From positions 43,276,001 to 43,340,000 of the forward strand of contig CM114271.1 of NCBI GenBank assembly GCA_050084515.1: a DNA stretch of 64,000 bases, in the 5' to 3' direction. The notes beneath the pieces were generated by a model. That model was not told the DNA's origin. It made no database searches and saw only the letters and a list, made by a program, of their open reading frames with translations. The position numbers were made by a program, and so were the translations under genes. Within the stretch, counting starts at the first letter, position 1; every line of letters begins with the position of its first letter. Below, piece by piece: positions 9,712-57,000 of the stretch. Source of the stretch: Blasia pusilla. Taxonomy: Eukaryota.

Positions 9712-9957
9712 TGTTAGAAAGTTATCACCGAAATGTTAGGAGTAGTGACAACAACAAGTCAAGTTCAATTCCTATTAGTGAATGTATAGTGGAAGGCATT
9801 TGCACTGTCTTTCTATATCTATATATTGAATATATTGTACATAGCATGTAACGGACCAGGAGTGATGAGCTTGACACTCACTCATTTCATATCCGAAATA
9901 TGTCTCTCTTGCTTCTCACCTTGTCTCTATGATTTTTGAATCCTTGTTTTTACAACA
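9712..9957 (+). repeat. Copia 5' LTR
   Basis: tgttagaaag...ttttacaaca; homologous to 30336-30604. Confidence 0.92.
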
Positions 9958-9969
9958 TGGTATCAGAGC
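9958..9969 (+). promoter_or_regulatory. Primer binding site (tRNA-iMet)
   Basis: tggtatcagagc immediately after the LTR. Confidence 0.95.
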
Positions 9970-13916: not shown

Positions 13917-14017
13917 AATAGAAACTTTAATAGAAACTTGGATGGAAAACCCATCGAGATATAAAGGAGGGGGGGCATAGAGAGCCAAAAAACCCGAGGG
14001 CCAAAACCGGCTGTCCT
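13917..14017 (-). mobile_element. 101-bp 5'-truncated retroposon (LINE/SINE 3' stub) in the copia RT
   Basis: 13-bp direct repeat ttccttataaaag at 13904-13916 and 14018-14030. Removal restores copia DIPYKRA..AMVCT. The tail carries a repeated aagtttctatt unit. Confidence 0.7.
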
Positions 14018-14112
14018 TTCCTTATAAAAGGGCAGCAAAAATTTTAATGTAGGCTATGGTTTGTACCATGCCTTATATATCTTTTGCTTTTAGTGTTGTA
14101 TCCCGCTACATG

Positions 14113-14881
14113 TGTCGTGCGCATACACATCGCTACACAATATACATTGATGTCAATGAACATACACACAAACACGCACGATCCCATGCTAACCCATGGC
14201 ATCCAAACAACGAGACGAGAAGTACCAAAATATCTCCAATAAATCAATGAAATCTCACATCAACATCTCACTCCAAACTCTCAATGGTATGCACTCTCTC
14301 TCATGTCAAACCAAACCCTGTCTCCTAATGAGAGGCTTGGGTTACACACACAAGACAAGGAAGACCATAGCTCCGCCACTTCATGCCAAGAGGTTCAACA
14401 AAGAGAATATGAGCTCTCAAGCTCTCTCTCTCTCTTAGAGGTATATCCCCTTCCCTCTCCCAAGCTCTCTCCTCAGTAACGAATGCTCATAGGACACCTC
14501 CTTGGCTCTTGACCTGTTGTAGCGGGTCAAGGTCCACTTTCCAAAGTGGAAATTCAACTATACTCCAAATAGAAACTGACCCAAAATAGTAAGTTTCTCT
14601 ATACGGCTCCAAATCAGCCGAAACGAAGGGGAAACCTGCTCTCTCAAGTTATCTGTGGCCTTAGCACGTCATTCTCGACCTCCAGAGGTTATCATCCAGT
14701 ATCTTTGAAGGCGCTCTACTAGATCTCGCTGATCTATCCTAAAAGTCGTGATTGTTGTCGTGCGCATACACATCGCTACACAACATACATCGTTATCAAT
14801 GAACATACACACAAACACGCACGATCCCATGCTAACCCATGGCATCCAAACAACGAGATGAGAATTAACAAAATATCAACA
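14113..14881 (-). repeat. 3' terminal repeat block of the gypsy element: Y'(14756-14881) - X(14239-14751) - Y(14113-14238)
   Basis: A ~126-bp unit tgtcgtgcgcatacac...aaaatatc occurs twice, flanking a ~510-bp unit homologous to 29209-29760. Confidence 0.92.
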
Positions 14882-15062
14882 ATTTCCCCCCTAGTTGGTG
14901 GTTAGGTCCCTCTCACTCCAGATAGCCATCTATCCCTACCTACTATGACATACATCTCTCGGACACTAAGAGCAAAAGGTTGGGTGCTCATGTGGCCCCA
15001 TCGTTAGTCGCCTTCTTGTCATTGATTTCATAGACACAAGTCGGAATCTATAATTACCTACT

Positions 15063-15206
15063 CTATGTACATCTAAGATACATCCATCATCTCTGAGGAC
15101 CCTTAATGAGAGGTGGCGTCAAACATGCCATATGCCATCCTCTCGAACACCCATCATAGACTAGCATAGTGGTTGCACCACGGGCAGAACCACACAACAT
15201 ACATCG
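15063..15206 (-). pseudogene. PHD finger at the C-terminus of the gypsy polyprotein
   Basis: RCMLCGSARGATTMLVYDGCSRGWHMACLTPPLIKGPQR*WMYLRC fits the C4HC3 PHD consensus, with two Cys->Tyr decay substitutions. Confidence 0.88.
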
Positions 15207-15399
15207 CAAGCCTGCATGAACTATTGCTAAACTTGGATCAACTATACCATCAAATTTTGGAAGGTGACATGGCGCACAGTTACGCACAAGGTCCTTCCAA
15301 ACCATACCATCGCATCCCTCCAATAAGAGAACACCTAATGGAAAAATCTTACCCACTCTCAAGATGGTGCGTCTTGCAGTCACATCCAACATCATGAGT

Positions 15400-16420
15400 G
15401 TTGTCTATTGCAAGTAGACATAGTCTCCTTGATGAAACCTCCAGATGGTAGGTCAATAACCACCTCCCCGAATAGTCGCATACCTCCACGTATCCTAATG
15501 TTCGCAATCGCTAAATTCTCAAACGCCATGAGCATCACTCTCTAAAACAACTCAGCCCTTTAAGAACATGCTCGCATCCATACATTAGGGTCATCAAGGT
15601 TCAACACCTCACCAACATCTCAAAAAATGGCCTCAAGAAAATTTGGTTCTCGACCATAAAGTAGCAAGTACGGTGAGAAAGACGCTAAGGATGTCTGCTT
15701 GCTGAATCTGAATCCCATCGCCAACCACGGCAATTGGAGGTCCCAGTCTCTTACGTGACCTCTCTGCAAGCCATACTTACGCAATCCTCTCTTCACCATC
15801 TGCACAACCCTCTCCCCTAGTCCATCCGCCTCAAGATGATCTCGCGAAGTGGTGCGGTGGTCGATCAGTGTGTGATCACACAAGGCCTAAAACTCCTCAC
15901 GGAACTCTGTGCCCTGGTCTGTCAACACCTCAGCTGGTGCACTGTAATGACTCAGCACTCAATCTAGGAAGGAATACGCTACTCCCTTACTCGCTTTGTC
16001 AAGAAATGCAACCAACTCTATCCACTTTGAGAACTACTCAACCATCACCAACACATAACAACTATGGCGCTCCGTCAAAGGTAAAGGTCCTACAAAATCC
16101 AAACTCCATCTATAACCTAAACCCATGATCCGAAGTGGATGCAATTATGGAGTCGGAGAATTGAAAGATGCTCGGATCCGATCACACACCATGCACTTGC
16201 CAAAAAAATTTGAAGGTCAGTCTGCATGCCTGCCACCAACATTGTATCCGGAGTAAGCTATACGTCCGCTTCACTCCAAAATGACCCAACTCCTCGTGGG
16301 CATGATGTACCAAATGTGCTCTCTATGAATGCTAAGGCACTACACGTACTCTATCATCCTCCCAAACTTGCAACACATATGTCCCCTCCCATCAGAACCA
16401 TCTCGCTCGCCGTAGGATCC
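15400..16420 (-). pseudogene. Gypsy DDE integrase
   Basis: HEELGHFG..CMVC (HHCC), WSLDFVGPLP, EVLTDQGTEF, ADGLGERVVQMVK, FSPYLLLYGREP. Confidence 0.92.
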
Positions 16421-16739
16421 AATCCTACGGGCTAACACCCACTGTGCTCACAACGTTGCCAGTATGTAGGTACTCCAAGACCACTCCATTTTCGTGAATA
16501 TCTCAGCCACGTGTCGTCTCCTCACCAACCTCTGGATCTAAGGACTCTCCATCAAACCTTGCCATCAAAGTCTCTGCAATTTGGCTCTCCATAGCCAACA
16601 AGCCCAAATAGGCTCACGCGTGCCATCCTGGAACCAACTCCTAATCCCCCTCTCCATGCCATCAAGCTCCAATCACATCTCGCTGACTCGGGCATGGGTT
16701 AGGGTTCAAACCATCTACGTCTTGGTTGAGCGTCCCTTG

Positions 16740-18940
16740 TCTGTGCACCACTTGGAAATCATACTCCTGCAACAATAGAGCCCACCTTGCAAGCTTCCCT
16801 GTAAGTTTTTTGGACTCCATCAACCACTTAAGTGGCTAATGATCGGTAATAATGGTAAAGAGGTTGCCGAATAGAAAACGCCTAAAATGTACGACAGCCC
16901 ACACTACAGCCAAGCACTCACCCTCATACAAGCTATACTTTGCCTCTACATCATTGTTCGAGCGACTAGTGTAAGCCACCATCATCTCTCTATCCTCATC
17001 GTCATGTTGGGTGAGCACGGCTCCAAGCCCCAACATACTCCAATCGGTATGCTGCCAGAAAGGATGCCCCCTGATCGGTCTCCTCAATATGAGCGTAGAC
17101 GTCAATCTATCCTGGAGCAACTGAAATGCTCTCTTCTCCTTATCCCCCCACTACCACTCTTGATCCACTTTGTTGAGCAAGGTGAGCGGCTTCGCAATCG
17201 AACTCAAACCCTTGACGTACGGTCGATAGAAGTTTTCCAATCCCATGAATGCACGAACTCGACTCACATCTGTAGAGCATGGAATGCGTGAAATAGCCTC
17301 TACCTTGTCTGCTGCACACCAAGGCCCCTTGGGTATATCGTATGACCCAGATACTCAATCTGGTCGTAGAAGAACTTGCACTTGCCTTGATGTAGCTTCA
17401 GCCCATGTAACTGCAATCTTCTAAACACCTCCTCTAGATGTCGCTCATGCTCTTCAACCTTGGCGCTAAAGACTACTATGTCATCAATATAACACTTGCA
17501 AAATCCAGACCTGCCGAGATCCTATCCATGACCCTCTGAAACTCAGCCAGGGCGTTCTTTAACCCAAATGGTAAGAACCACCACTAGTACAAGCAATCCT
17601 TCCCATGAGGATCAATGCCCAAAAGTACCGACTTCTGCTTGTCCTCCAATCTAATAGGCAGTTGATGGAATCCGGCTCAAAGATCTAGCAAGTAGAAGAT
17701 CTTTGCATGCCCAATAGCATCAAAGATCCCCTTAGGCATGGGCATGGCATACCTATCGGACTTCGTCTATTGATTGATAGGTTGGTAATCTCCATACATT
17801 CGCCTATCCATCCAGTTGCCATGCACATCCTTCTTGGCGGGCATCATAGTGGCAGAAGCATACTCTCCATGCGATATCTCCACTAGTCCTGCTCCAACCA
17901 AGTCGTGGGTCCTACTGTGAATCAAGGTTGCACGGAAACGAACATGTCCGTCCATGGGACAAGTCCGGACATGCCCGGATTGCACCCGGGCCCGCACTCA
18001 AGCCCGCCCCAAGCTCGCCATGTAGACCCGTGCTCACGGAGCTCGCACTTGTTGCATGGCCCGCACGGTGGGCTCCATGCGGGCAAGTGTGGGTTTCGAG
18101 CAGGGAGGTATGGGCTCAAGGTGGGCAAGCGCGGGCTATCGGATGATTGGGCGCGAGCTCCAAGCAGGCAGGCGCGGGCTCTAGATATGAGCGGGCTCTA
18201 GACATGTGCAGGTAGGTGCGGGCTCAAGGTAGGCACGTGCGGGCTAGGGCGGGCAGGTGTGAGCTCAAGGCTGATTGGGCGCGGGCTAGGGCGGGAAGTT
18301 GCAGGCTTAGAGCGGGCTAAGGCGGGCAATTTCGGGCTCAAAACGGGCAAGCGGGGTCTCAGAGTGGGCAGGTGCGGGCTCCGGCAAGCATGCGCAGGCT
18401 CAAAGCTGATTCGGCGTCGACTCTGGATGGTCAGGTGCGGGCTCCAATCGGGCAGACGCAGGGAGGGCGCGGGTAGGTGAGGGTTCCAAGCAGGGAGGCG
18501 CAGTTGAGGGCCTGCAGAATTTTGGTCCAAAATCTGGCGGGCCTTGAGCCCGCATGCGGGCTTAGGGCGGGCTTAGGGCGGGCTTAGGGCGGGCTTAGGC
18601 GGGCTTCAAGCACGTACCCAGGGCCTGCACCAAGCGCGCCCTAGGCCGGGCTGCAGGCCGCGCAACGGGTGAGGGATGTAGGTGGACTCGGGTGCGGGCC
18701 GTATGCCCTGGTGCCCAACCCCGCATGGACATGTCCGTCAATAGGACGAACATAAGTCTATGGACATGGATATGTCCGCGGACACGGACTTTGTCCGTGT
18801 GCAACCTTGCTCTGAATCACAACTCTCTCCATATCACTGTACCTGTAGGATCGTCGGAAGATCGGCGTGTCACTCGACAACTCAATGCAGATGCCTGGAC
18901 CCTTCAATGTACCCAAATCATGCATACATGCAATCTCCAT
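16740..18940 (-). pseudogene. Gypsy RT + RNase H (interrupted by a hAT MITE)
   Basis: YRYSDMER, GDYQPIN, DL*AGFHQL, PFGLKNA, CYIDDIVVFS (17471-17500), EYLGH; RNase H HTDWSMLGLGAVL, EGECLAVVWAV, ITDH. Confidence 0.93.
17923..18809. mobile_element. Non-autonomous hAT-type element (887 bp), same terminal family as 7615-7919, opposite orientation
   Basis: Perfect TIR caaggttgcac / gtgcaaccttg; 8-bp TSD ctgtgaat/ctctgaat; interrupts the gypsy RT; GC-rich interior built from gcgggct repeats. Confidence 0.92.
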
Positions 18941-19279
18941 CGTGAGTACGGTAGGACTCTCCGGCGCGGATGATGATGGTTGCTATGGGTGCAACCCCGT
19001 ATCGGACAATAGAACTCAACTGCTCCCCAGTAGCCAACTGCAAACTCTGATCTCCACGTGTAGTACCGCAAACCACGCTGGATGTTGTGGCTATCATCTC
19101 CCGGCATACCTGCAAAATATCCCAAGAAGTCCAAGGGTGTCTCTCCTGATCACCCCTAGTATGTCGATCTCCTCGGGTGTCACCCCCAACCATTGTCTCA
19201 ACCATCTCCGTAGGCATGGGGCTCACCAATGCAATAGCTTTGATGTGTCACAACCTCAAACGACGCTGCTCAGTTACTC

Positions 19280-19567
19280 CTAAACTGAAAATCCATGTCA
19301 AGCACTTTAGGTCCATCGCGTGACCTAAGACATGACATCGTGATGCCTCTCATAGTGATAGTATTATCGTCACTCCTGTGGGGAATCCCATCGCTCGCTC
19401 TCGCTCATCGGCATTGGGCTCCACCAACGGTTGTATTTGGTCATCCCAAACCAAGCCAGGCCCAACCTCCTTGAATGCATAAGGAGGAGGGAAACTCACC
19501 AATGTGGGAAAGGCTACTCGTGGCATGTCAATCCTGTTGACCACAGTCAACGACGGTCGATCATCGT
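19280..19567 (-). pseudogene. C-terminal half of a cytosine-5 DNA methyltransferase (motifs IX-X), DNMT3/DRM-like
   Basis: EPNADERERAMGFPTGVT..*EASRCHVLGHAMDL parallels DNMT3 'EMERVFGFP..YT..SRLARQRLLGRSW' and DRM 'EPDEVEMLLGFP..HT..LGNSF'. Confidence 0.85.
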
Positions 19568-20471
19568 GCCTCACTCTCGGGGATCTTACTTCCGCAGAAG
19601 AGACACATCACGTACGACAAAGTATAGGGTTTTTTAATTGGATTTAGGGGAAGACTTATAAAGAGTTGTGGAAGAACTTTAGGATATTTTTAATTTATGG
19701 CAGAAATTATTTTAAAAAATAGGGCATTGTTAATTCACTGGGTGTACATGAAAGATGTCCAAGAAAGTAAGGGGTGCCCACCATTTTTTTTTAAATGGTG
19801 GGCACAGGTGTCAACAATTTATTGGTCCACGTGTCAATCTTAGAGCTAGCCCAATAAATGACATGGATTTATTAATTAATTTTGAATTTTAAATGAATAT
19901 CTAATTTAGTATATCTAACCTAATCAGGAACGTTGGCGGGAGAGAGTGAAGCCAGTGTGGGAGAGGGAAGGAATCCAGCTTGAAGCTCGAGGAAAGGATC
20001 TCAGCTCGAGAAAAGGAATGCAACACAGCTCAGGGAAAGGAATGCAGCTCGTGAATGTTGAACGAATGTTGAACGAGGAATGCTAATCGTTTAGCATTCT
20101 CATTCTTGTTTTCTTAGCACCATCCAACCAAGCGCAAGGATTGTTTTGTGAAAAGAGTCACTTTATTTTTGTAGGTGACAGCATTTTGGTCTGGAAGACG
20201 GACGGACTCAAGGGAGGCTGGCTCTCGAGAGGATCAAGCTGCCGATGCGGATGTAGTAATTATCTTCTTTTTCTTGTCCGGGCGGGTTCTCAAGTAATAT
20301 GCATACCTCTTAGCCTGATTGTGATCGTCTACATAGGTTTCTGGAAGATAGAATGAATAGTTGCGACGACTGCCACCGAGTTTCCATCGTATTTGCATAA
20401 AACATGCAGCTGACCCAAATATCATGGGGTTGTAGGAGGCTAGGCTGAAGATTTTCTCAAGGAATAGCTTG

Positions 20472-20788
20472 CATTCAAAAACCCAATAAATTGCAGCAAA
20501 TGCCCAACAGTGATACGTTGTCGCTTGTCACTCATATATGCCGTTTGAGATACACCGACTTGTAGGAGACCATACAAGCACAAAGTTTGGTTCAACGTTC
20601 TCTAGTACTGGTATGACCTCCTGAAACCAACATTCAAAAACCAATAAATTGGAGCAAGTGCCCAACATTGATATGTTGTCGCTTGTCACTCATATATTCC
20701 GTTTGAGATACACCGACTTGAAGGAGACCATACAAGCACAAAGTTTGGTTCAACGTTCCCTAGTACTCGTATGACCTCCTGAAACCAG
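20472..20788. repeat. Tandem duplication, 2 x ~159 bp
   Basis: cattcaaaaaccaataaattg...gacctcctgaaacca occurs twice with few substitutions. Confidence 0.9.
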
Positions 20789-21448
20789 CTTGTGCTCATG
20801 GCTTGCACTCATTTGATCAACCCAGTTATCGACTTTCCTCTATAACAGTATACTTCAAAGTTTGTACGTGAGGGAACTCACCATGATAGTTAATTATTGT
20901 GAGGTCAGCAGCGGATCACCACCCATAGGACATGAAGTGATGTAGAGACTAGGATGTGCGTTGAGAGAAGAAGAACAGAAAGAGGCACTATATCAGAGCA
21001 CGGAGACACTCTCATAGAATGTCAGTGTTGTCTTTGTTTTGCCTAATGGTGATCTATATGGCTTTGGAGACCATGATGCACCTCACAATGGGACGAAAGA
21101 AATTAATCCATTGGATAGATGCTCAACTACTTGTGTCCTTGGAGATCAACATGCATCTTTGTCATATGTCACAAATGTTTATAACCACTACAAAATTCAT
21201 GAACATGGCTTGAAGTGGGATAATGTGAATAGAATTGACGAGGAAGACTTGAGTTGGGCCTCAACGAACTGCTTCAAAGAGAGTGCAAGCCTGTTTGTAT
21301 GATATGTTTGAGAGAATGGATGTTCGTCATGCCAGAAGCCTAGGGACCCAACTGTACTTGGAGGTTTTTGGTGATTACATTGATATTTTCTTCTCACGTA
21401 AGCATGACTTGAGAAGTCGTGTAGTTTTGGCATCTAAAGTGTCATGGT

Positions 21449-22141
21449 TGTCGTGCGCATACATATCGCTACACAACATACATCGCTGGTCACATCTACA
21501 CCACACAACACCGATCTTCCCCACACACGGGTCGATCCACACATGTACAAAAATCAACTCATACATATACATGGAGATCACACAACACAAATAAAGAGTA
21601 GTAAAAACAACACACCCGGCCTAAAACTCCACTCCTCAATCTACATCGACATATCGAGCCTCGTCCACCCTGTGCTATCAAGGAATCCGGACGCTAGCAC
21701 CCTAGTCCTATCTCACACACATACTAGGGAGGTGCTCCAACCGCCCAACATGAGAAAGATGGCTTAGGAAAGCCATCTTCCTCTCTTATATAGGGTTGGG
21801 AAGAGCCAAAAGGCTCTTCCCCTAAAAATAGCCCTCTCCTTGGTAACCTGCTCGCACAGGTTACCAGGGGCGGGTGACCTTGTCAACAAGTCACCCGGCT
21901 GTGAAAGACCTCAACATGAAAGTTGTCAGAAACGACGTTCCTGCCATAATGGACCTATCCTCAACCTCATCCAACACCGTGGGACAAATTTACACTCAAG
22001 ATAGTCCGCTGGCTCCTACGCCCTATCCACGATAGATCTCGGCCTATCGGCTACTCAGATGTGACATGGTTCTTTCGACTCTGGAGACTTTGGTTGAGAT
22101 ATGGTGATCATTCTGTAACAAGGAGTGTAGGATCTGTGACA
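21449..22141 (-). mobile_element. Solo LTR of a family related to the gypsy element
   Basis: tgtcgtgcgcatac...tgtgaca; shares the terminal ~37 bp with repeat Y. No TSD visible, and part of the host transposase appears deleted. Confidence 0.75.
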
Positions 22142-24055
22142 TAGAAGAACATGATATCAGTGCAAGCTTTCCATGATATCAACATGTCTTGCCATTTTCT
22201 TGTATTACTAATGTGTGTTATCCGTGACAAGTATCAATAATTGCAAGTTCCATTTCATCTCCTAGGATGTGATTGTTGTGAGATCTTCTTCAGCAAGGTA
22301 GATAATGAGTGGCCATGAACGCAACTATGATTTTGGGTCTTTGTTGGATAATGCAGTGGGATTGAATAGACTGGATGGCTTGGAATTAGGACCAGAAGGA
22401 TTAAAGATTGGCGAGTCTCATCCAAAGCAAGATCATGCGTGGGGAACTCTCCATCCGTTAGATGCACGAGAAGATGCCCCTAACCTGTTTGACTTTTCAT
22501 TGATTCAGACTAATGAGCTAGAATTTGATGCCCTTAAGGAGGGTTTGGATGAAGCAAAATCAATATTGACTAGGTTGAATATGTCTTCTAGATCTTCTAT
22601 GCCAGTAGGTCAGAGGCAATGGTGGTTGCATCCATAGGATGTGGAGGCAGAGACGTGCCCTGATTCTGCTCTTATGAATGAGGTAGTTGCATTTGATGAT
22701 TTTGAGGAATTCATAGAACACATACCAACAATAGGCCCTTGTCCACCCGAGTGTTGATGAAATAGAAGTTGAAGACCCAATACCAAAGGATTTGAATAGT
22801 CTTGATGCATGGGAAAGTGATGCACCGGCCTCTTTTGATTCTAGAATGATTGGTGAGGACTTGGCTGAAGATGCAGGTAAAGATCAATCTATAGAGACGA
22901 AAACATTTGGACATGAGCTAAGGCCTGTATTCAGTTCAATTTCGCAGAAGTGCACTGATGAAGTTCCTCTTCGAGTTGTGCCTACTGTGACCTTTGAGGG
23001 CAGAGTGCACTTCAATTCTACTTTGGTGAGTGATTGGGCGTGCAATCCTTTCATTTCTAAAGATAGGCTAACACGTATGTCACAAAAAAACATATTACAC
23101 TACAGTTAAGGTAAAAGAACCAACTATTCCAGCTTTCCTAACTTGTTATGTTGATATTGGAAGTGATATAGCTGTTTTGTTTGAATCTACCACACAAGTG
23201 TGCCCTTCTATCAAATCAAGTAAGTCAAAGAAGAGAAAACAAAAAGAGCTCCGTGAGAATAGGGTAGTCCCTACAAGTGAGTTCTGGTTAGGTTGCATTC
23301 TATTCATGAAACATAAATATGGTAGTCAATGGGATAGGTGTAGATCTCCTATTGATCTTTTGGACCAGCCTGCCCTAAAAGATGGGCAGAGAGGAAGTCT
23401 CTTTCAGATATTGTGCAATTGGTATCGACGTTGAGATAAGAGCAACACTTTGTTCACATATGATGCATGTGATGGCCAATATATTGATATTGAAATGATG
23501 ATTTCGAATGTGAGTTTGTCCATGAAGCCAAGTCTTACATCCACGATATATGAATTGGATAACTATGATTTACAAGTGGTCAATGATTATATCCGCAATG
23601 TGTCATCTTTTGCCAAGTGATGTGCATGTCATAGTGTGAAGTAATTTTTTGAGATTATGATAGGCTAGTTTTGGGAGGGGATAGGTAAGGGGGATGAGGC
23701 GTCTCAACCAATGAGCATCCTGATTATTGTGAGGTTCAATTCCTCTCCGTCATAAGTGCCAAAGTACCTATATTTGACAGTGGTGGTGCATATGGTTGAT
23801 CGTGAAGGCTGTTATCAAGTGCAACAATACAAGACCGCCACGTGAAGGTATACTTATCTTTACTTTTAAGCCCCTAAACAAATCAAGGACAAAAATTTAC
23901 TTAACAAAATATAGGGGTCATAATTTTTTAATTGGAAATTTTAAAGTAAGTAAGGGGGAGGGAAAAAATTCACTTATAAGTTAGGGGTTTCCGACCTAAA
24001 AATATTGTAGGTAATGTTGGAGTTATACATAGACTGTCCCCCCCAAGGCCTCACT

Positions 24056-24710
24056 GCCTGTGATTGACAACATGGATCCAGAATAGAATCCACCAACAAA
24101 TAGGAGGGGCGCTCCACTCTCATACGCCCTCCGTTAAACCTCATGTGGCACCAACTTGGTCCATCAAAGACGCGGGCGATGTGCTCATGAACCTACATTT
24201 TCCGCATCCAAGAACAATCCCAAGCCCATCTATGCGTGCACCAGATGTGCACTCATCCCCACGCGGGACCTCAAAGCGCCCAAAATCAGCACATTCTCCA
24301 GAATGCTGGAGAACAAGACTGATGCTCGTGTAAGTGTCGCAAAATCCACATCATCTCCCAAAACAACCTCGATCAAGAGTCCGCTAATCCACTACCCCGT
24401 CTAACACTCGACTAGCCCTGACACGCCAACCAGCAATGACCAAGTCTATGGTCCCTACCCGCTCCAAGTCATGCGTCCCCAACAATGAAATATCCCTCCG
24501 TAGGGAACTCTAGTATACCTAGATGGTAGACGTAGACAACAAGTCAGGAAATCAGAGGCATAATTGCGCCACATGATGAAGTGAATCGCGCCTCGCAACA
24601 TCATCAATCTCAACATATAGGTACTACTCCACGCGCACTCTTGCCTGCAAAACAGCATCTAAGCCACTGTTGATCCCTCCAAAGAGATCCAACACGCGAA
24701 TACCCTCCAC
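24056..24710 (-). pseudogene. N-terminal half of a cytosine-5 DNA methyltransferase (motifs I-VIII), DNMT3-like
   Basis: GIRVLDLFGGI (I), YVEID (II), RDI (III), IDLVIAGW(P)CQG (IV, 1-nt deletion), RLFWEM, LENV (VI), LDAENVGS*AHRPRL*WTKL (VIII; cf. DNMT3 IDAKEVSAAHRARYFWGNL). Confidence 0.9.
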
Positions 24711-25099
24711 TGGATGCACCACACAATCAGGGTGGTGTCCAAAGGGGTCATAGCAACAGTCATGGCTACCTTGGATTCCTCTAACCAGTCACGCTCTTGT
24801 GCAAACGCCTCACTCTAGGTCGTCTGCACGTGCTCATGAGATAAACTTTGGAGCTCCTCACTCAAGCCCCACAACGGCACCTCTCCTCCACGGAATGATG
24901 CGGCTACCATAACACTCCTCTCCCTAGAAGTGTCAAGCGCGGGGATGTCCTCTGCATGGACATGCCCCTCAATCAAATCTGAAGGCCACGTGATGGCGTT
25001 GCTGAATGCTGCTAAAGTTGCCATCTCCCCTGGCCGTCGCTCGATCACTCAACTCGTGAATCAAACGGATAATGAGCTAAGTTGCCCATCACCGGACTG

Positions 25100-27508
25100 C
25101 CATCTTGGTCTGTAGAATGATGACCCCTCCCAGTAATCCAAGGAAAACCCCATCGGATACAACACTACTCCACCAACCAAGACGTCGTAGGATTCTGCAT
25201 CGGTCACTATCGCCTTGGCTCGCACCACGGACTAATCTGTAGGATGTCTTAGGCGAATCCTTATCACAACCTCTTGTTGGGTGATAAACTGTGTGGTACT
25301 CGCTCCACCCAAGGATGTCTATATCTAGAATGAACAATGTTCCACATCGGCCCTTGTCAGGCCTAACCCTATAAATGCCACTTTCCCCAACATCAAGGGT
25401 TGCGCTCTTGAATCTAACAAGACATGCTGCAAACAAAAAAATCTAACTCTAAGACTCACCATCTGGAAGATCTCTCCCCAATTTTCCAGCAATACAACAC
25501 CAGGAGAAACCATGGCACGCTCTATCGCGGGTCTAACGAGCATCTCCGCCATCCTAGCACTCGCAACCTGCCATGAATCTAAGTTGGACGGCCCGAGCAT
25601 CAGCTCCAAGGGCATGTCCATCACCTCCTCTACAATCACCTCTGAACGTGATGCAAAAACACCATCTCCATGCTCATATAGCGTAGCGATCAACTAGAAA
25701 ATCTCGACGGGCGTCCCAACGTCAGAACATCGGAAGCAAAAAATAGCGCACCACGATATACCATCGTAGCCGCCCCCAACATCATACTCGACACATGCTT
25801 CTCCCGAGCATCAACAATAGAAGTCATCACACTCGCTTCTCCCATTTCCCTCCGTGCTTGCACACTAACACCATCAACTCTCCGAGAACTTTGATCAAGA
25901 CCCATTCATGGGGTCCTCATCGCCTCGGCCTACGTGAAAGATTGAGGAAGCTTGGTCTGTTTCCTGGCTTCCCCCTCTGTGGATCCAACTCCGCGGCGGC
26001 TCCACGTGTAACAACAACGGCTGCCTCCAATTGGACAGTTGCGGAGTTAGTCACTCCAGCCAGAATCCTCCATATCTCCGGCGGCTCCATAAGACGTCAA
26101 TGCCACGACTCCCGCATCGTGTAACCTCAATGCCCTAGCGGCAATGTACTCCTGTAGCTACTCTATCTAAGCAGCCATTCTAGTCTCACGTGCGGCCTCT
26201 CTCTCGACGCGTCTAAGTGGCGGAACTCTACCTCCTCCACAAGAAACTCCACCACCCCCTCGGGAAAATCCAACTCCTCATCCCCCAACAGAACCACCTG
26301 GTGCACGACCTCTAAGCCCACCCGGACCGGCAACTCGCTCGAGTGCCCTCTCGGGCCCTAGGTCTGGACGTAACTCAAGGTATAGGCTGAAACACGTGGG
26401 GCATGTATGACTGTACCTTTGACAATAGTCACGCTAATAACCTCTTGGTGCAACACCATCTCCTCCTCCATGTTGAGGCACGCGTCCATGAGCCTGAGGA
26501 GTGAAATTGAACTGGTCATGGGCTCCACCACATGCCCAACAAATAATCGCAGGCGGCTGCTGTTGAGCCGCATATGAAGGCGCAGGTCTTGTGGCACGGC
26601 CTCACGATCTCCTCCCTAAGCTCGTGGTGCCACAGACCTATCTCCGAATCCACGTTGTTACACTCGTGGTGCAGGAAATTGTGACTGCTCTTGCCTAGAA
26701 CCCATGGTGGATACGCTCTCTTCTGCCATGTTACGCTCAATGTTCTCCGTGGTCCTAAAAACATCTCTCAACATAGGTGAGGTGTTCATAAGAAGCACCA
26801 TCTCCCGCACCGGTGTCCGCAAGGTTTGGTCCAACATCGCATATCATGATTGGATAGCGTGGGACTTTATCACCCCCTTAGTGACATTAATCAACCGGCG
26901 CAAGCAAGTGTAAGCCTCACGCAAACTCTCACCCGGGAACCTCTGGATGTCGTGGATGCTCCGCAACTTCTCAGTCCGTACCTCCTGATAGCTTGTCCAC
27001 AACTCCGCAAAGAACTCAACCACGGGGTTGAACCTGGGACAAACCCCAATGGACAGTGCAATTGCTCCAGTGCAAGTTACCCCTCCTAAAACTTCACTGG
27101 TGAAAGAGGAAGTAGCCTCTCTTGAATCCTCCTCCTGATCAGGAACGGCTCAGTCCATGACACATAATGTGGATCATAGTAGAGTCTTCATGCCTCAATC
27201 TCCTAGGCATATCTGTGGGAGAACTCATGGTAATCGTCCATGGGTGCCCCCTCTAAATGCTGGAATATTCTGCTCCACGTTGTAAACGAGTAGAATTCTC
27301 TAGAGTTCCTAGCCCACTGTGAGTCACACCAACTCCTAAACTCTATAATAAATTCATGCAACTCTATCGTGCCTATAGCACCCGAAAACCTACGTGGTCC
27401 TCTATCACGGTCGTCCATCTCATACGCCCAACTCGTAGGACCACTCAATGTATGCGGTGATGCACTAACAAACTCCTCTACACTCTCCCCCTTCTCTAAA
27501 GACGACAC
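25100..27508 (-). pseudogene. Gypsy Gag and aspartic protease
   Basis: Gag-like PRRFSG..LHEFIIEFRSWC..HLEGAPMDDY; Cys/His knuckle-like ICWACGGAH (~26540); protease VLLDSRAQPL (D-S-G variant, ~25410). Confidence 0.75.
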
Positions 27509-29208
27509 AAAAGGAGGTTGAGGCGATCCCTCATGTAGAGAACCTCAAAACCTCGCGCCACTCCGCATGAACCCTCTAGAGCTACCCTCAGGTCCACCAC
27601 CTCGCCTCTCAAAGTCTCAAAAGGACAACATGATGACCCTCGTGTCCCTCTCACACGATCACTCTCAATCTCACGAGTAATCACTCAAACTTAACATGCG
27701 GCACTCAATCTACAGTCTCTCACTGAGATGTGTGTTGTGCGACAACAAGCGGCGTGGTGCGGCAAACTGGCTGATATATCGTCTCATGAACAGCACGTAC
27801 CCTCAACTCTGGACATCCCATATAGATCTATGTCCCCTAAACCCATACAGCATCGATGCTCTCAGCATCAGCACGAAACCCAATATCCCCAAATAACTAT
27901 CCAATACTCGGAAATCCCTAACACATGCAAGGACAAAGACCAGAATAGGTAACATGAACAAATGTCGATCGCTCGTCAGCAACTGGAAACCTCGACCCGA
28001 AATCAAACATAAAGACAAACTCCTCCAAGCAGAAGTCGTACTCCTCTGGTATTGACTATGCTCCAAAATCTCCTCGATGTGCAGTGCGGGTCAAACGATA
28101 CGGTGCGGCACTGGCGGCACGGAACGGCTACATACGGCACGTCACTCGGGAATGTGGTGCGGCACTCAACCGCATACCCTCCTCAGTCAACAAAACACAA
28201 TCTGCTCCCAAGTGATGGAGTGGCTCCGTGATCGAGACGGTACGGTGCGGCCATGAGCGACACATGGCGGCAATTGGCAATGCGTTCCGGCTACGGGCGT
28301 CACGGCACGGTACACGATCGTCGTCGAGCGGCTACCAATCACAACATAGCAAAGTGGAAAAGAAACTACGATCCCATGAATCCAAAAAAGTCACCTTGTC
28401 AAAGTCGCGAGTAAACAAGTGGCGATAACCCATACGGACTCACCAAGTATGAGATGGGCGGCCCTAGCTAGCCCTCAACGATGTTGGCGGCAAGACGTAG
28501 TTCTGAACAGCGGCGGCAGCAACTTGTGTCGGCGGAGGCAACGATAACTAACTGCAGCGACTACGAGGACGGCGGTAAGCGGCGGAGGCAAAAACTCGCA
28601 TTGGTGGCGGCGGCGGTGCAAATGGCACAGAAGGCGCGAATGGTGACGGTGATGGCAACGGTGGCAGCTGGTTTAGGGTTTGACAATTTTTACCCTAAAA
28701 TTGGCAGTTTGCAAAATTGGTCATAACTTTCTGCTCGCAACTCCAAATTGTGCATTGATTGTTGTACAGCGTGCACAGCTTCATGATCTACGATGGCATT
28801 AATATTTTTTTGATCAAAACTTCCAATAAAAATTGACGAGAACTATCATAAAGCCCTTCAATCTACTATCCTACAAGAAATTCAGCAGCGCTTCCGCGCT
28901 GATTTCTCCCAGCATAAATTTCAAACCTATAAAAATCAGAAATCAAAGAAGTTCAAGGTGCTCTTGAGAGTACTGGCATGGGGCAATCTGCCCCCATACT
29001 CAATCTCTAAAGAAACTTGGGCAGCGCTTCCGCGCGCCACTCTTCCACACAAAAAATCGGTAAAGAAACATCAAAATCAAGCGGCTCTTGCTCCAGTGAG
29101 CACTCCCATGAGCCGTTGAATGGCGAACATGGTTCCCAACATGCACCAACAGTGAGTGACTAGTGAGATCCTCTATTGAAACTCTCTCACTCCTTCATTC
29201 TCTCTATG

Positions 29209-29760
29209 TAAATCAATGAAATCTCACATCAACATCTCACACCAAGCTCTCTATGGTGTGCACTCTCGCTCATGTCAAACCAAACCCACTCTCCTAATAA
29301 GAGGCTAAGGTTACACACACAAGGCAAGGAAGACCATAGCTCCGCCGCCTCATGTCAAGATGTTCAACAAAGAGAGAATGAGCTCTCAAGCTCTCTCTCT
29401 TGGAGGTATACCCCCTTCCCTATCCCAAGTTCTCTCCTCGATAACCAATGCTCGTAGGTAGCCTCCTTGGCTCTTGACCTGGAGGTCAAGAGCCTCTATT
29501 GAACCTCCTTGGCTCTTGAACTGTTGTAGCGGGTCAAGGGCCACTTCCCAAAGTGGAGAATCAACCATACTTCAAATGGAAACTTACCCGAAATAGTAAG
29601 TTTCTTTATATGGATGCAAATGAGCCGAAACGAAGGGAAAACTTGCTCTCTCAAGTTACCCCTGGCTTCATCAAGTCATCCTTGAACTCGTGAGGTTGTC
29701 CTCTAATATCTCCAAATACGCTCTACTAGATCTCGCCGGTCTATCCTAAAAGTTGTGACA
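29209..29760 (-). repeat. 5' terminal repeat X of the gypsy element
   Basis: Homologous to 14239-14751, with an extra ~42-bp internal duplication at ~29480-29520. Not followed by unit Y or a clear PBS. Confidence 0.92.
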
Positions 29761-30335
29761 TATGGCTAATTCCGGACAGAAGCAATAGAATGTAATCAAT
29801 AGAATTGTATGATACTTTAAAGGTATAGTATCCATTGGCATAAATTATCATACGACAGAAGATTGATTGGTTACTTTGACACTAATTGGGGAGGCAACCT
29901 TGATGGCAAAAGATCAACTTCTCGATTTTTTTTCTTGTCGGATCAAAGAGCTATTTTTTGGCCAAGTAAGAAGCAAAATTCAGTTGCCTTATCAACTACA
30001 GAATCATAGTACATGGCTTAAGCAAAAGCAAGCACCAAAGCAGTTTGGTTGAGGAATTTTCTTGCTGATTTGGGACATCAACAAGATCATATTACTATGT
30101 ATTGTGACAATAAGGGTGCAATTGCATTGCTAGAGAATCGTAGATCAAGTGATAGAACAAAACATATTGACATTCGGTATCATTTTGTTAGAGAGTTGAT
30201 ACATAATGAAGTCATCGAAGTGATCTATTGTGACACTGATGACATGGTGGCAAGATATTCTTACCAAAGGATTGACTTAAGATAAGCATATTTATCACAA
30301 TAATAAACTTATTGGTTGTAGTCACTAAGTGGGAG

Positions 30336-30604
30336 TGTTAAAAAGTTACCACGAAAATGTTAGGAGTAGTGACAACATCAAAAGTCAAGTTCAGTTCCTG
30401 ATAGTGAATGTATATGTAGGATCAAACAGATAGGATTGGAAGGCATTTGCAATGTCTTTCCACATTTGTATATTGAATAGATTGTACAACGCATATAGCG
30501 GACGAGGAGTGACTCGTTTGACACTCACTCATTTCATATTTGAAATTTGTCACTCTCGCTTATCACCTTGTCTTTGTGATCTGTGAATCCTTGTTTTTCC
30601 AACA
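30336..30604 (+). repeat. Copia 3' LTR (PPT aagtgggag at 30327-30335)
   Basis: tgttaaaaag...ttttccaaca; homologous to the 5' LTR. Confidence 0.92.
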
Positions 30605-30866
30605 TAAGCTTTGCATGGATAGTCTTTGTTCCACTACGAAAGATGTGATAAGTTCTAAAGGGTCATGGATAGGATATAACCAAGTTTGGATTTGGTAGAT
30701 GTTATGCCTTTTATATCATAATCTTCAGTTTCATAATTAAGGAGCATGAACAATATCTTATAGATGTGTTTGATCAAATGTACTAATATGAACTGAAGTT
30801 ACATCCATATAAGTACAAGCTCTTCCACAATCAAATTCGATATCTAGATTACATAATATATCTTTT

Positions 30867-30951
30867 AGGCTTACGAGTTTTTTTTTTAAATGGAGGGTGC
30901 TAGACGAAATTCGTGGAATAGCCTCCATTTTTTTTTAAAACTCGTAAGCCT
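30867..30951. repeat. Short foldback (inverted repeat)
   Basis: aggcttacgagtttt..aaatggagg / cctccattt..aaaactcgtaagcct. Confidence 0.85.
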
Positions 30952-30952
30952 T

Positions 30953-31140
30953 TTCATAATCACTTAAAAACCCTTGATCTATCATTTATAGAAGCGTGTG
31001 GATTATATGAGTGCATGAAATTGACTCAAATGTTTGCTGGGCGAAATATCGTGGAATAAACATTTGAGTCAATTTCATGCACTCATATAATCCACACGCT
31101 TCTATAAATGCAAGATCAAGGGTTTTTAAGTGATTATGAA
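30953..31140. repeat. Near-perfect long hairpin, 83-bp arms and 22-nt loop
   Basis: 30953-31035 is the reverse complement of 31058-31140 with 2 mismatches. Confidence 0.95.
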
Positions 31141-31862
31141 GCCTCTTACTATGATGTTGAAGATGGATCATGAATGGTGAGGAGGGAGCGCTTTTGAGCA
31201 ATTCACGGAAAGATTTACATCCACACCCATCTTAACTCTTAAAGACCAATCAAGAAACACCATTTCCAATTGTAGAACAATTCGAATATGGAGTTTTCCT
31301 CCCATAAGATGATGATGAAGGTAGAAATTTTGTAGTGGCTTAAGCCACCCTCTCAAACAATGTTACCTAGATGAACAAGAGAGAGTGCTTAGTCACAATG
31401 TGGGTCATCACATATTTTAAATGTTGTTTGTTCACTAACCCCTTAACTAGTGTCATTGATCATCAATTGTCAAAGAGGTTGATGGATTTTTGGCAATCCT
31501 ATAATCTGTAACAAAATGACCCATATGGATTTTGTGGATCACATGACGGAATGTCAAATGAATTCTATGTGACGGCCCCTGAACTGAACTTGAACTTGAG
31601 CATTCTAGTGTGCATGTTTGAAGATTGAAGGTCCCCAACTACTTTAAGGGTCATGAATTCTTGTATTAATAAGTCTTGTGCTTGGAAATTTTGCAACACA
31701 ATTTCACCGATGCCAAAGAATATGTACAAATTGGAATAGAGATGATCAGAACAAGCTTCCAATCAAGAGGAGCAATATGTTCAACCCTGCCAGCGTAGAT
31801 TGGCAGAATGCCCAAGGAAATGTGAGGTCTTGTAAAGATCCCCAAGATGACCTCCACTTGTG

Positions 31863-55384: not shown

Positions 55385-57000
55385 TTACTTTTCAACTCTT
55401 GCCATGATATGCTTGAAAAGAGCATCAAGATTTCTCCTTCCTTGAAATGTTGTTTCATTGTTTGGAGGATCGCTACGACCTCGTGCTACATTCATCCTTG
55501 TCGAGGAGGAGGGATCCATGATATTATCTACTAGAGGATCTTCTCTATCTATCATGATGTTATGAAGACCACATGTAGCAAATATCATCTTCGGTAGTGC
55601 TTGTAAGTTTGGCTTGTAAATGACTCGATTAAGTATGTGCCATGTCCCTTTTAGTCGGCCGAAAGCTCTCTCCACACACATCCTCATGGAAGAATGATAA
55701 AAGTTCCAAGTGTCCTTTTGTCCAATAGGTGCTACAGGATAAGGAACTATGAGCCATGGCAAGAGTGGATATCCTGCATCACCAATAATGTACTCTCGAA
55801 TCTTCCCACCACTTCTTAATGGAAGTGAATGTCCATCTAGGATGTCATGCCTTTTAGGATAGATCGACGAGATTTAGTAGAGCGTCTTTGGAGATACTGG
55901 AGGACAACCTCAAGAGGTCAAGGATGACCTGTTGAGGCCACGGGTAACGTGAGAGAGCATGTTTCCCCTTCGTTATGGCTCATTTGGAGCCATATAGAAC
56001 AATTTACTATTTCCGATAAGTTTCCATTTGGATTAAAGTTGACGTTCCACTTTGGGAAGCGACTCTTAACACGTTACAACAGATCAAGAGCCAAGGAGGT
56101 GACCTGTGAGCATAGGTTACCGAGGAGAGAGCTTGGGAGAGGGAAGAGGGTATACCTCCAAGAGAGAGAGCTTGAGAGCTTATTCTCTCTTTGTTGAACT
56201 TCTTGGCATGAGGCGGCGGAGCTATGGTCCTCCTTGCCTTATGTGTGTAACCCAAGCCTCTCATTAGGAGAGTGGGTTTGGTTTGATATGAGAGAGAGTG
56301 CACACCATGGAGAGCTTGGTGTGAGATTTCTTAAATTTGTTGGAGATATTTTGGTACTTCTCGTCTCCTTGTTTGGATGCCATGAGTTACCATCGGATCA
56401 TGCGTGTTTATGTGTATGTTTGGTGATAGCAATGTATGTTGTGTAGCAATGTGTATGCACACGACAAGGATCCTTTGGTTGGAAGTGGCATTTTTGAAGA
56501 TTTCGAGTATCATGAATAGAAGCATGATATCCGATGAACACATCTAGAAATTACAGTCTTGAATGGACGATAGCTTGCATCGCACAAGCATAAGATTTGT
56601 TTTTATGACTATACCAAACTGTGGAATTTGCATCCGCTGGTAGTTTCATGAGGAAGTGAGTGACGTCAATTGCACCGCAATAATTTAAAAATCCATGTTG
56701 TGATTTGGAATCTGATTTCACCCTCTCCCTATGTTGTCCTTTTGGCCAAGTCACTGCCCCACGTGCCTCCTTCACAAGTGCATTAATGACTCTGAAGACA
56801 ACTTGCAAAGTTGTAGATTTTCCGATACTAAAGAGCTCTCCAATCCCCTTCATTAGATCCCGTGTGGCAAGACGTCGTCAAGTAATAGCAACTTGTCTCT
56901 TAGCACTCAACAACCTATTTGGTAAGACTTGTAGGGAATGGGGAGGATTAGAAATTAGTCGACTCCGTAACATATCACAAATGAAGTCAAATGTATTTAC
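55385..57000 (-). pseudogene. PIF/Harbinger (HARBI1-like) DDE transposase, interrupted by a solo LTR
   Basis: ELFSIGKST, CGAIDVTH, MQAIV, HDTR, IIGDAGYPLLPWLIVPY, FYHSSMRMCVERAFGRLKGTW, CGLHN. Candidate left end taa|gggccgggtcccat at 51456; right TIR not found. Confidence 0.92.
55843..56466 (+). mobile_element. Solo X+Y repeat of the methyltransferase-bearing gypsy family
   Basis: Reverse complement of 14113-14751; TGTCA...CGACA ends; perfect 4-bp TSD agga. Confidence 0.93.

Follow-up and report, generated by a model that had tools for sequence, protein, structure and literature searches.

A liverwort Ty3/gypsy lineage with split direct repeats and a possibly permuted route from cDNA to insertion

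Introduction

The normal integrated layout of an abundant Ty3/gypsy lineage of a liverwort is X...Y-NN-X-Y, an arrangement of split direct repeats that is found throughout the lineage. Its insertions run from X to Y, whereas the repeat used in reverse transcription appears to be Y-NN-X. Because these two frames conflict, we infer that the integrated copy is a circular permutation of the cDNA, the ends of which would have been joined and the resulting molecule opened by the integrase at a CA-NN-TG joint. In the textbook view, LTR retrotransposons and retroviruses insert linear cDNA by its own ends, and circles are dead ends. Here, the ends set by reverse transcription and those on which the integrase acts would lie at different positions on a circularly permuted molecule, and the lineage offers a natural system in which to ask if a DDE integrase is able to make productive use of a circle joint.

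The element described here spans 15.6 kb, at 14113-29760 of a 64,000-nucleotide stretch of Blasia pusilla DNA (the window). It is an old, decayed, twice-interrupted copy of this very abundant lineage.

Repeat layout of the element

The order X...Y-X-Y is confirmed in the sequence of the element, which is read here in element sense, i.e. on the minus strand. It starts with X5 (A1; 29209-29760), which opens with TG and has no adjoining Y; none was seen downstream of X5 when the sequence of the element was inspected. The coding region is followed by the polypurine tract AGGGGGGAAA (14883-14892), in which a run of six G (14891-14886) is succeeded by AAA and then directly by Y' (B1; 14756-14882), ending in CA. 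After a 2-nt spacer, AC (14754-14755), come X3 (A2; 14239-14753), with its TG decayed to AA, and Y3 (B2; 14113-14238), whose terminal CA is the right boundary of the insertion. X5 (29760-29209) and X3 (14751-14240) are 79.4-79.8% identical with gaps (E about 1e-149) and 86.7% identical without them. Y' (14881-14756) and Y3 (14238-14113) are 94.3% identical by BLAST (E 1e-50) and 92.9% identical in a global alignment.

An earlier note on this DNA had described the 5' X without Y and the purine tract against Y', both of which are seen in the sequence. It had read the junction of Y' and X3 as acaa followed by an X lacking its TG. The TG is indeed missing, but a spacer AC followed by a TG decayed to AA is the better reading, because this junction reads CA-GC-TG or CA-AC-TG in a sister family of the same genome and CA-GC-TG in relatives. 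A solo X+Y, pointed out in the same note, is present on the plus strand at 55843-56466, with TG..CA ends and a perfect duplication AGGA/AGGA (55839-55842 and 56467-56470). Its X is 84.6% identical to X3 and its Y 88.9% identical to Y3, in X-then-Y order.

Spread of the layout

Whole-genome reads of the same species were mapped to the window and counted at 80% or more identity. At this threshold 185,707 of 12,434,590 reads fell on the window, and the lineage supplies about 1.5% of the liverwort's reads. Joints in which Y begins immediately at the purine tract (14240->14887/8/9/91) are represented by 106 reads in their commonest form, and two other runs have them in 18 and 4 contigs. For the sister family, 333 reads carry the joint 22066->21449/21447, composed of the Y end, GC or AC, and the X start, and 1243 loose ends past the Y end have as their consensus GC and then the start of X. 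Neither a joint from the purine tract to the start of X nor one from the end of Y to the leader is among the 15 best-supported joints listed (670 others). By a rough estimate (agreement 0.46 plus joints), about half of the Y ends in the host genome continue into X.

Relatives were drawn from 80 related metagenome loci, all of which were mapped. Among these, the order purine tract-Y-NN-X-Y follows pol in nine distinct insertions (L004, L013, L019, L039, L063, L071; L042, L059, L067), and together with the same-genome reads they make the layout reproducible, as had been proposed from the single copy. Two X+Y LTRs, the arrangement that in other copies would have made this layout a local deletion plus duplication, were not found: a Y after or before X is seen at 0 of the 12 distinct 5' ends of relatives. 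A repeat-free form, X...Y, accounts for 13 distinct insertions against 9 for X...YXY. The purine tract adjoins Y in 7/7 copies displayed, its flank being kept in relatives, and five out of six distinct copies have CA-GC-(TG or decayed TA) as their Y-NN-X joint. The joint between X and Y is variable among copies: it is exact or overlaps by 1 nt, lacks 1 nt, or contains a 17-nt filler that is similar to X sequence close by. The filler is carried by L004, the joint of L071 differs again, and an identical joint is common to L019, L039 and L013. In L063, X is followed by primer-site sequence and then by an inverted copy of X 1-180.

Integration frame

TG...CA ends with 4-bp target duplications bound X...Y. 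The duplications are perfect in 3/3 full X...YXY relatives (AAGG, CATA and TCTC), in 5/6 X...Y relatives having both ends, and in both solos of the window (2/2). Of the 12 insertions for which both ends are available, 10 have a perfect 4-bp duplication, and the remaining two match in 3 of 4 bases. The duplication of the full window element is itself imperfect, with CATA on the left (29761-29764, element sense) and CATG as its partner (14109-14112). Rather than two identical LTRs, X and Y bound the insertion, with the purine tract adjoining Y' and the primer site adjoining X5.

Primer site and reverse-transcription frame

No TGG primer site was found at the 5' end of the element, in agreement with the earlier note. 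A candidate self-priming primer-binding site (29195-29208) instead starts from the first base after X5, and relatives have it at the same placement with a different sequence. The first 14 bases past X pair with a stretch of X that follows a TATA box at a distance of about 28-33 nt. For the window element, this stretch is the RNA's predicted 5' end (X positions 380-393; 29368-29381), and a TATA-like motif of putative function (X position 351; 29406-29410) lies 29 nt upstream of it. Pairing reaches 13/14 in the window element and 14/14 in L019 and L023, with 0/2000 shuffles as good in each, and 12/14 in L029 (10/2000 shuffles as good). The paired sequences differ between families and therefore co-vary. 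In the families F3 and F4, pairing in copies is only 10/14, no better than in shuffles, and the agreement is in position only. In predicted folds the RNA's 5' end is closed onto the primer site, in MFE and centroid structures alike (z -2.74 and -3.00); the 5' end of the folded RNAs was set at the paired stretch by choice, and the folds are not independent of the pairing. Strong complementarity is present in two families and the folds agree, with a transcript start predicted solely from the TATA box. As judged from sequence, priming looks tRNA-independent.

Where the purine tract and the primer site lie is plain in the copies. Since the purine tract adjoins Y and the self-priming site follows X, the reverse-transcription repeat is taken to be Y-NN-X. 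Read in this way, reverse transcription itself looks orthodox, as the purine tract adjoins the start of the repeat and the primer site its end. The non-canonical reverse transcription suggested earlier is therefore not favoured, and the unusual step would sit between cDNA and insertion. Self-priming is already known in Tf1/sushi/Tcn1 elements (Neumann et al., 2019, PMC6317226).

From RNA to insertion

A presumed route, from transcription start through end joining and circle to cleavage by the integrase, would run as follows. Y-NN-X would act as the long terminal repeat in reverse transcription. The minus strand would be primed in the manner of Tf1 by the RNA's own 5' end, which would lie ~30 nt past the TATA box in X and pair with the bases directly after X, and the plus strand would begin at the purine tract adjoining Y. 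The cDNA ends (X end and Y start) would be joined first, as in a two-LTR circle. The integrase would recognise the TG at the start of X and the CA at the end of Y, which stand back to back in the repeat, 2 nt apart, and would open the CA-NN-TG joint of the upstream repeat, giving an insertion with a 4-bp duplication. As a whole, this explanation (Y-NN-X repeat, self-priming, joined ends, opening of CA-NN-TG by the integrase) has, in our judgement, a slightly better than even chance of being right.

Besides the lineage-wide layout and the placement of the two frames, several observations favour this explanation. The variable joint between X and Y resembles an end-joining product, unlike the constant Y-NN-X joint, the structure of L063 matches plus-strand strong-stop DNA folded back on the primer site, and no tyrosine recombinase was found in the window element or L019. 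Others stand against it. Where a circle carries two identical joints, opening would be expected at one as well as the other, yet the alternative product, X-Y-NN-X-leader...Y, is seen at 0 of 12 distinct 5' ends, so that a bias, or fast loss through recombination of two close X copies, would be needed. The joint common to L019, L039 and L013 looks inherited, unless the same cDNA ends are produced again and again by members of a subfamily. Furthermore, Y' and Y3 (92.9%) are closer than X5 and X3 (86.7%), although both pairs are predicted to be equally old, and the neighbouring Y copies would have to have undergone gene conversion.

It is possible, though unlikely, that a permuted or circular form is made by the reverse transcriptase itself, in the way suggested for PAT/Ngaro elements, with an RNA running from inside X5 into Y3, Y'-NN-X3 acting as the bridge or template by which the cDNA ends meet, and the integrase only inserting. 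The layout is the same as that of tyrosine-recombinase elements (PMC8969392, PMC5890265), and the single joint between X and Y in L019, L039 and L013 would be expected if it were copied from the parent RNA; the joints of L004, with its filler, and of L071 do not fit this expectation. Moreover, the purine tract and self-priming site are exactly where the orthodox Y-NN-X scheme needs them, and this reading is without a known step that halts synthesis precisely at TG and CA.

Rather improbable is a cut-and-paste style of insertion, in which the integrase would cut two inner sites on a linear Y-NN-X...Y-NN-X cDNA, with X...Y as the main product and X...Y-NN-X-Y made occasionally via head-to-tail dimers or template jumps. 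The excess of distinct X...Y insertions (13 vs 9) and the perfect duplications in 5/6 of those with both ends would agree with this, but a deletion between Y' and Y3, or the opening of one-LTR circles, would explain X...Y equally well. X...Y copies are also without a 3' copy of R and hence unable to make the first strand transfer, so the lineage would persist only via X...YXY copies, and roughly half of the Y ends in the host genome (a rough estimate) continue into X.

Close to refuted is the reading in which X+Y would be the true LTR and reverse transcription would follow the canonical course, Y' being an inherited partial tandem LTR, the 5' Y having been lost in old copies, and the purine tract and primer site having been misidentified. 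It would account for the textbook TG..CA ends with their short terminal inverted repeat and 4-bp duplications, and for solos consisting of X+Y. However, 0/12 distinct 5' ends retain any Y, the purine run is absent before X3 and the G-run adjoins Y' in every copy displayed, and in two families, whose sequences differ here, the predicted RNA start is complementary to the bases past X. A private rearrangement of one copy, with the 5' Y deleted and Y duplicated locally at the 3' end, would suit an old copy that bears two other insertions and in which Y' and Y3 are more alike than X5 and X3, but it is ruled out by the identical layout in nine distinct related insertions and hundreds of same-species reads.

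Comparison with known systems

On the joined-cDNA explanation, this would be a streptophyte DDE-integrase LTR lineage with joined-end cDNA (two-LTR circle or head-to-tail) as its obligatory insertion substrate, its back-to-back integrase ends, 2 nt apart, being opened in an IS3/IS30-like way. We put this forward tentatively, as somewhat short of an even chance. If true, solo X+Y and repeat-free X...Y copies could be direct insertion products, and not recombination scars alone. In bacterial insertion sequences of the IS3/IS30 type, ends abutted 2-3 bp apart in a circle or dimer are the reactive joint for the DDE enzyme. These are DNA-only bacterial elements, and the comparison is one of analogy, not membership.

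Retroviral integrase has been reported to cleave the palindromic LTR-LTR joint of two-LTR circles (PMC1180852, PMC1905944, PMC4372172). There, cutting within abutted CA...TG ends regenerates insertable ends, but for retroviruses the reaction is at most a side path, whereas in the liverwort lineage it would be obligatory and the joint permanent, with a 2-nt spacer. PAT/Ngaro/DIRS elements share the split direct repeats A1-internal-B1-A2-B2, which imply a joined-end or circular intermediate. They rely on a tyrosine recombinase and leave the target unduplicated, in contrast to the DDE integrase, TG..CA ends and 4-bp duplications found here. Tf1/sushi elements and plant Tcn1 chromoviruses, as described in PMC6317226, have a primer site directly past the repeat, complementary to the start of their own RNA, and no tRNA site, as is predicted for the liverwort lineage; they differ in having ordinary LTRs and a chromodomain, where the liverwort lineage has a PHD finger, a DNA methyltransferase (DNMT) and permuted repeats.

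A close likeness is seen in KnitGypsy-Dnmt3 of Klebsormidium nitens, for which the Fig. 4c legend of de Mendoza et al. (2018, PMC5890265) notes the same repeat layout on a gypsy LTR retrotransposon whose pol contains a Dnmt domain. Both features, a C5 DNA methyltransferase inside pol and repeats in the order A-coding-B-A-B, occur in the liverwort lineage; the host there is a charophyte alga. The description at that figure does not give a primer site, purine tract, spacer, duplications or mechanism, and relatedness of the two may be supposed from their shared architecture alone. The layout had thus been noted once before, in an alga, and the liverwort lineage joins that unexplained kind, with less novelty than the earlier note supposed.

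The lineage may show the origin of split repeats in tyrosine-recombinase and gypsy elements, convergent or otherwise. LTR-finding software built to look for a pair of equal LTRs will mis-annotate X...Y-X-Y elements, and dating these by LTR divergence needs care.

Coding content and later insertions

The lineage encodes a protease, DNMT, reverse transcriptase, RNase H, DDE integrase and PHD finger. The pol order protease-reverse transcriptase-RNase H-integrase is seen with the DNMT sitting between protease and reverse transcriptase, as in the relative L019. All coding features of the window element lie on the minus strand. A decayed, protease-containing part of pol (24725-25708) was located by tblastn with the Marchantia proteins P0130 and P0132. 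The cytosine-5 DNMT domain is in two parts, 24116-24704 (P0132 residues 381-578) and 19290-19574 (residues 600-694), both also found by tblastn. Precomputed annotation assigns Pfam PF00145 to Marchantia P0130, P0132, P0141 and P0149, and L019 matches Pfam DNA_methylase at 9e-5.

The reverse transcriptase (17303-17925; Pfam RVT_1 and tblastn) and RNase H (16760-17150; RT_RNaseH, 3.6e-32) are followed by the DDE integrase already recognised in the earlier note, with its zinc-binding domain and catalytic core (15844-16330; Integrase_H2C2 and rve). A search of three sense frames in the window element and L019 gave no Phage_integrase match at E<=0.01, so the failure to see a tyrosine recombinase recurs here. 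At the integrase's C-terminal end is a probable PHD finger (15080-15200), whose Pfam PHD match of 2.6e-4 is below the cut-off; the match in L019 is 3.7e-8, and PHD is annotated (precomputed) in many relatives.

Two later insertions are private to this copy. The larger, of 4480 bp (19568-24047), splits the DNMT domain, as seen from the gap in the protein match and from 536 reads with the joint 19567->24048. No Pfam families were found in it, and it contains a minus-strand solo X+Y of the sister family (21449-22066; alignment and read joint 22066->21449), with TG..CA ends and the duplication ACCA/ACCA. The other, of 895 bp (17915-18809), is G+C-rich with 40-nt repeats, and its joint 17914->18810 is carried by 511 reads.

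Repeat layout of the element and its relatives

A direct-repeat search, together with BLAST of the pieces against the window, bore out the X...Y-X-Y layout claimed in the earlier note for a split end repeat. In element sense its parts are X5 (29760-29209), Y' (14881-14756), X3 (14753-14239) and Y3 (14238-14113), all on the minus strand, with a solo X+Y on the plus strand at 55843-56466. X5 and X3 are 79.4-79.8% identical with gaps and 86.7% without, Y' and Y3 are 94.3% (BLAST) or 92.9% (global alignment) identical, and X3 is 84.6-84.7% identical to the solo X. Read directly, X5 begins with TG, and Y' and Y3 both end in CA. As had also been described, the purine tract (a run of six Gs, then AAA) abuts Y', and nothing of Y follows X5 in the window copy. 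The solo is bounded by a perfect AGGA duplication. The 4-bp duplication claimed for the full element is present but imperfect, as CATA/CATG share only three of their four bases.

Metagenome contigs were scanned with an alignment of 14 relatives, which yielded 80 loci. Self-comparison was applied to the 27 with long flanks, while probes for X, Y, the leader (the region after X5) and the sequence before the purine tract were mapped on all 80, loci with common flanks being merged into distinct insertions. The order purine tract-Y-NN-X-Y, where NN is a 2-nt spacer, occurs in nine distinct insertions among the 80 loci probed (L004, L013, L019, L039, L063 and L071, with L042, L059 and L067 from two further families). 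Three of these are complete from X5 to Y3 (L004, L019, L071) and carry perfect 4-bp duplications, TCTC, AAGG and CATA respectively. All 12 distinct 5' ends (L004, L005, L008, L010, L018, L019, L029, L045, L071, L070, L064, L078) read as flank followed by X, with the leader directly after X in 11; L018, which lacks the leader, has apparently suffered an internal deletion. Y before X, Y after X and X-Y-NN-X were each seen at none of these 12 ends. The X...Y-X-Y layout is not private to the window copy: it recurs across the family, and the two X+Y LTRs that the earlier note had named as the result that would speak against it are found at none of the 12 5' ends, because none has Y beside X. In the more distant loci L015, L073 and L079 no Y pair lies within the 1.4-2.1 kb downstream of pol, and these loci are uninformative.

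Copies elsewhere in the same genome are known through reads. Four sequencing runs of the species were compared with 14000-29900 at a likeness of at least 80%, and 185,707 of 12,434,590 whole-genome reads match this region. At the joint 14240->14887, and at close variants of it, the purine tract directly meets the start of Y; the commonest form has 106 reads, and two other runs show it in 18 and 4 contigs. In a related (sister) family, the joint 22066->21449/21447, supported by 333 reads, joins the Y end through GC or AC to the X start. The 1243 loose ends past the sister-family Y end give a consensus of GC and then the X start, with an agreement of 0.46, as expected if about a third to half of Y ends continue into X. 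The best 15 joints listed include none from purine tract to X start and none from Y end to leader; 670 more joints exist, and rare forms are possible.

A repeat-free form, X-leader...purine tract-Y followed by unrelated flank, is as common as the X...YXY form, with 13 distinct insertions (L005, L007, L010, L029, L014, L022, L035, L045, L051, L054, L070, L078, L056).

Integration ends and reverse-transcription ends

The integration frame consists of TG at the X start, CA at the Y end and a 4-bp duplication. Perfect duplications flank all three full X...YXY relatives, five of six X...Y relatives (L005, L010, L029, L070, L078; L045 matches at three of four bases) and both solos in the window.

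The ends used in reverse transcription lie elsewhere. A conserved purine tract stands against Y', not X3, in all seven copies shown, and the first bases after X5 can pair with a part of X lying 28-33 nt past a TATA box. This pairing covers 13 of 14 positions in the window and 14 of 14 in L019 and L023 (one insertion), neither equalled in 2000 shuffles, and 12 of 14 in L029, equalled in 10 of 2000; in older copies of the L029 family it is weaker because one partner has mutated. In two further families, F3 (L070, L064) and F4 (L078), 9-10 of 14 positions pair, which alone is not significant, although their best site falls in the same position. Between the window and L019 families the paired sequences are unrelated, and the pairing therefore co-varies. 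When RNAs running from the predicted start to a little beyond the putative primer site were folded, the 5' end closed onto that site in both MFE and centroid structures (z -2.74 and -3.00), their 5' end being set by us and the folds not being independent evidence. By eye, the 12 bases that come after X contain no TGG primer site in any of the four families, in agreement with the earlier note, and ARAGORN found no tRNA genes in the window or the 80 loci for comparison with the primer site. The same arrangement is described for Tf1/sushi elements, in which self-priming is known, and for plant Tcn1, in which it is predicted (PMC6317226).

Since the purine tract abuts Y and the putative self-priming site abuts X, the repeat of reverse transcription would be Y-NN-X. 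Its U3 would consist of Y together with two thirds of X, counted from the X start, and the final 160-175 nt of X would be R-U5. The best-supported tables of the raw RNA run X14 show neither a read start at 29381, the predicted RNA start, nor a poly(A) end. In the same run, 7,564 of 10,132,408 RNA reads match the element at a likeness of at least 80%, and in most of them it is the first mate that lies on the plus strand; in a library of the usual stranded type, this means sense transcripts of family members.

A possible joined-end intermediate

An orthodox cycle on the element RNA would produce a linear Y-NN-X...Y-NN-X. The inserted X...Y-NN-X-Y would be the same molecule with its X end joined to its Y start and then cut open within the upstream repeat, at its CA-NN-TG joint, so that a permuted, joined-end intermediate would stand between cDNA and insertion. 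Retroviral integrases have been reported to cleave a palindromic LTR-LTR joint (PMC1180852, PMC1905944). Among copies the X|Y joint varies, with a 1-nt overlap in L071, the loss of 1 nt in L019, L039 and L013, and in L004 a 17-nt filler, like X sequence 25 nt away, plus four bases from the purine-tract side. Across six distinct copies the Y-NN-X joint is CA-GC-TG in four, CA-GC-TA (a decayed TG) in one and CA-AT-TG in L004. The X end has no conserved CA, reading TTTTCA, GATTTA, CTTTTG and ACTTTG in four families, which would explain why integrase does not use the right end of the cDNA itself. Together, a variable X|Y joint, a mostly constant, RNA-copied Y-NN-X joint and an X end without a conserved CA are consistent with joining by the cell.

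The circular intermediate is one which we infer, and is a weak point of the model. None of the 12 5' ends shows the mirror product that a two-joint circle would also give. Further weak points are that L019, L039 and L013 have one common X|Y joint, and that Y pairs are slightly more alike than X pairs in every case: 93.8 vs 92.1% in L019, 93.9 vs 90.8% in L071, 91.5 vs 85.8% in L004, 93.0 vs 90.7% in L076, and 92.9 vs 86.7% in the window.

The X...Y insertions could have arisen from opened one-LTR circles, by direct excision from linear cDNA, or by deletion, either between Y' and Y3 or between both X copies of the mirror form; each is possible. Such copies should be dead ends because they are without a 3' R. 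At L063:3361-3878 the primer-site sequence comes after X, and an inverted copy of X 1-180 comes after that; judged from this order, it looks like fossil plus-strand strong-stop DNA folded back on the putative self-priming site.

A comparable layout has been noted in the alga Klebsormidium nitens, in which KnitGypsy-Dnmt3 has repeats arranged as in DIRS and domains as in gypsy (de Mendoza et al., 2018, Fig. 4c legend, PMC5890265). The article offers no mechanism for it, and its supplements may hold more (de Mendoza et al., 2018). In the literature we found no second description of a gypsy element that has both an integrase and split repeats; the window element is a new, liverwort member of a kind noted once before. 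New here are the putative self-priming site against X, the purine tract against Y, the 2-nt spacer, the 4-bp duplications, the X...Y derivative and the proposed permuted, joined-end intermediate.

Coding content and later insertions

Pfam searches of X-read-through frames matched RT, RNase H, an integrase zinc domain, an rve core and a weak PHD finger at 17.8-15.1 kb, in keeping with the DDE integrase previously ascribed to the element; likewise, no tyrosine recombinase was found in three sense frames of the window element and its relative L019. At 22000-30000 Pfam matched nothing, and hence no gag. The nearest proteins, about 60% identical, are from liverworts (Calypogeia, Riccia, Marchantia). 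In tblastn with relatives' proteins, the protease region lies at 25.7-24.7 kb and a split DNMT domain at 24704-24116 and 19574-19290, all on the minus strand. A cytosine-5 DNA methyltransferase domain lies in pol between protease and RT, as it does in the Marchantia proteins P0130 and P0132 and in many metagenome relatives; PF00145 (DNA methylase) and PF00628 (PHD) accompany RT and integrase in many longer relatives. The PHD finger (15200-15080, minus strand) lies at the integrase C-terminus, the position of the chromodomain in chromoviruses; it is matched at 3.7e-8 in L019 and is precomputed in dozens of relatives.

The DNMT domain is split, and a further gap precedes RT, because of later insertions peculiar to the window copy: whole-genome reads skip 19568-24047 (536 reads) and about 17915-18809 (511 reads). 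The first is 4480 bp long and mostly low-copy, with 10 bases that fit either side of the joint, a 158-bp tandem duplication (20472-20787), sharp loose ends of RNA reads at 20983 and 21027, and no matched Pfam family. Within it lies a sister-family solo repeat (22066-21449) with TG..CA ends and an ACCA/ACCA duplication. A stray Y fragment at 21449-21485 had suggested a chimeric element; this was rejected because the fragment is the end of that solo. The second insertion is 895 bp long and G+C-rich with degenerate 40-nt repeats, and reads show that its place is taken in some other copies by 40 nt of different sequence.

The element adjoins another gypsy RT/RNase H fragment, which is more diverged (30650-31487, plus strand), and a direct repeat pair (9712-9958 and 30336-30605, 78.5%) brackets the region. 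The element may be nested in an older one. Between the copy and the reads over 14000-29900, the commonest differences are C>T (1393 places) and G>A (1339), each of the other ten kinds numbering 137-624; deamination of methylated cytosine would be expected to give such an excess.
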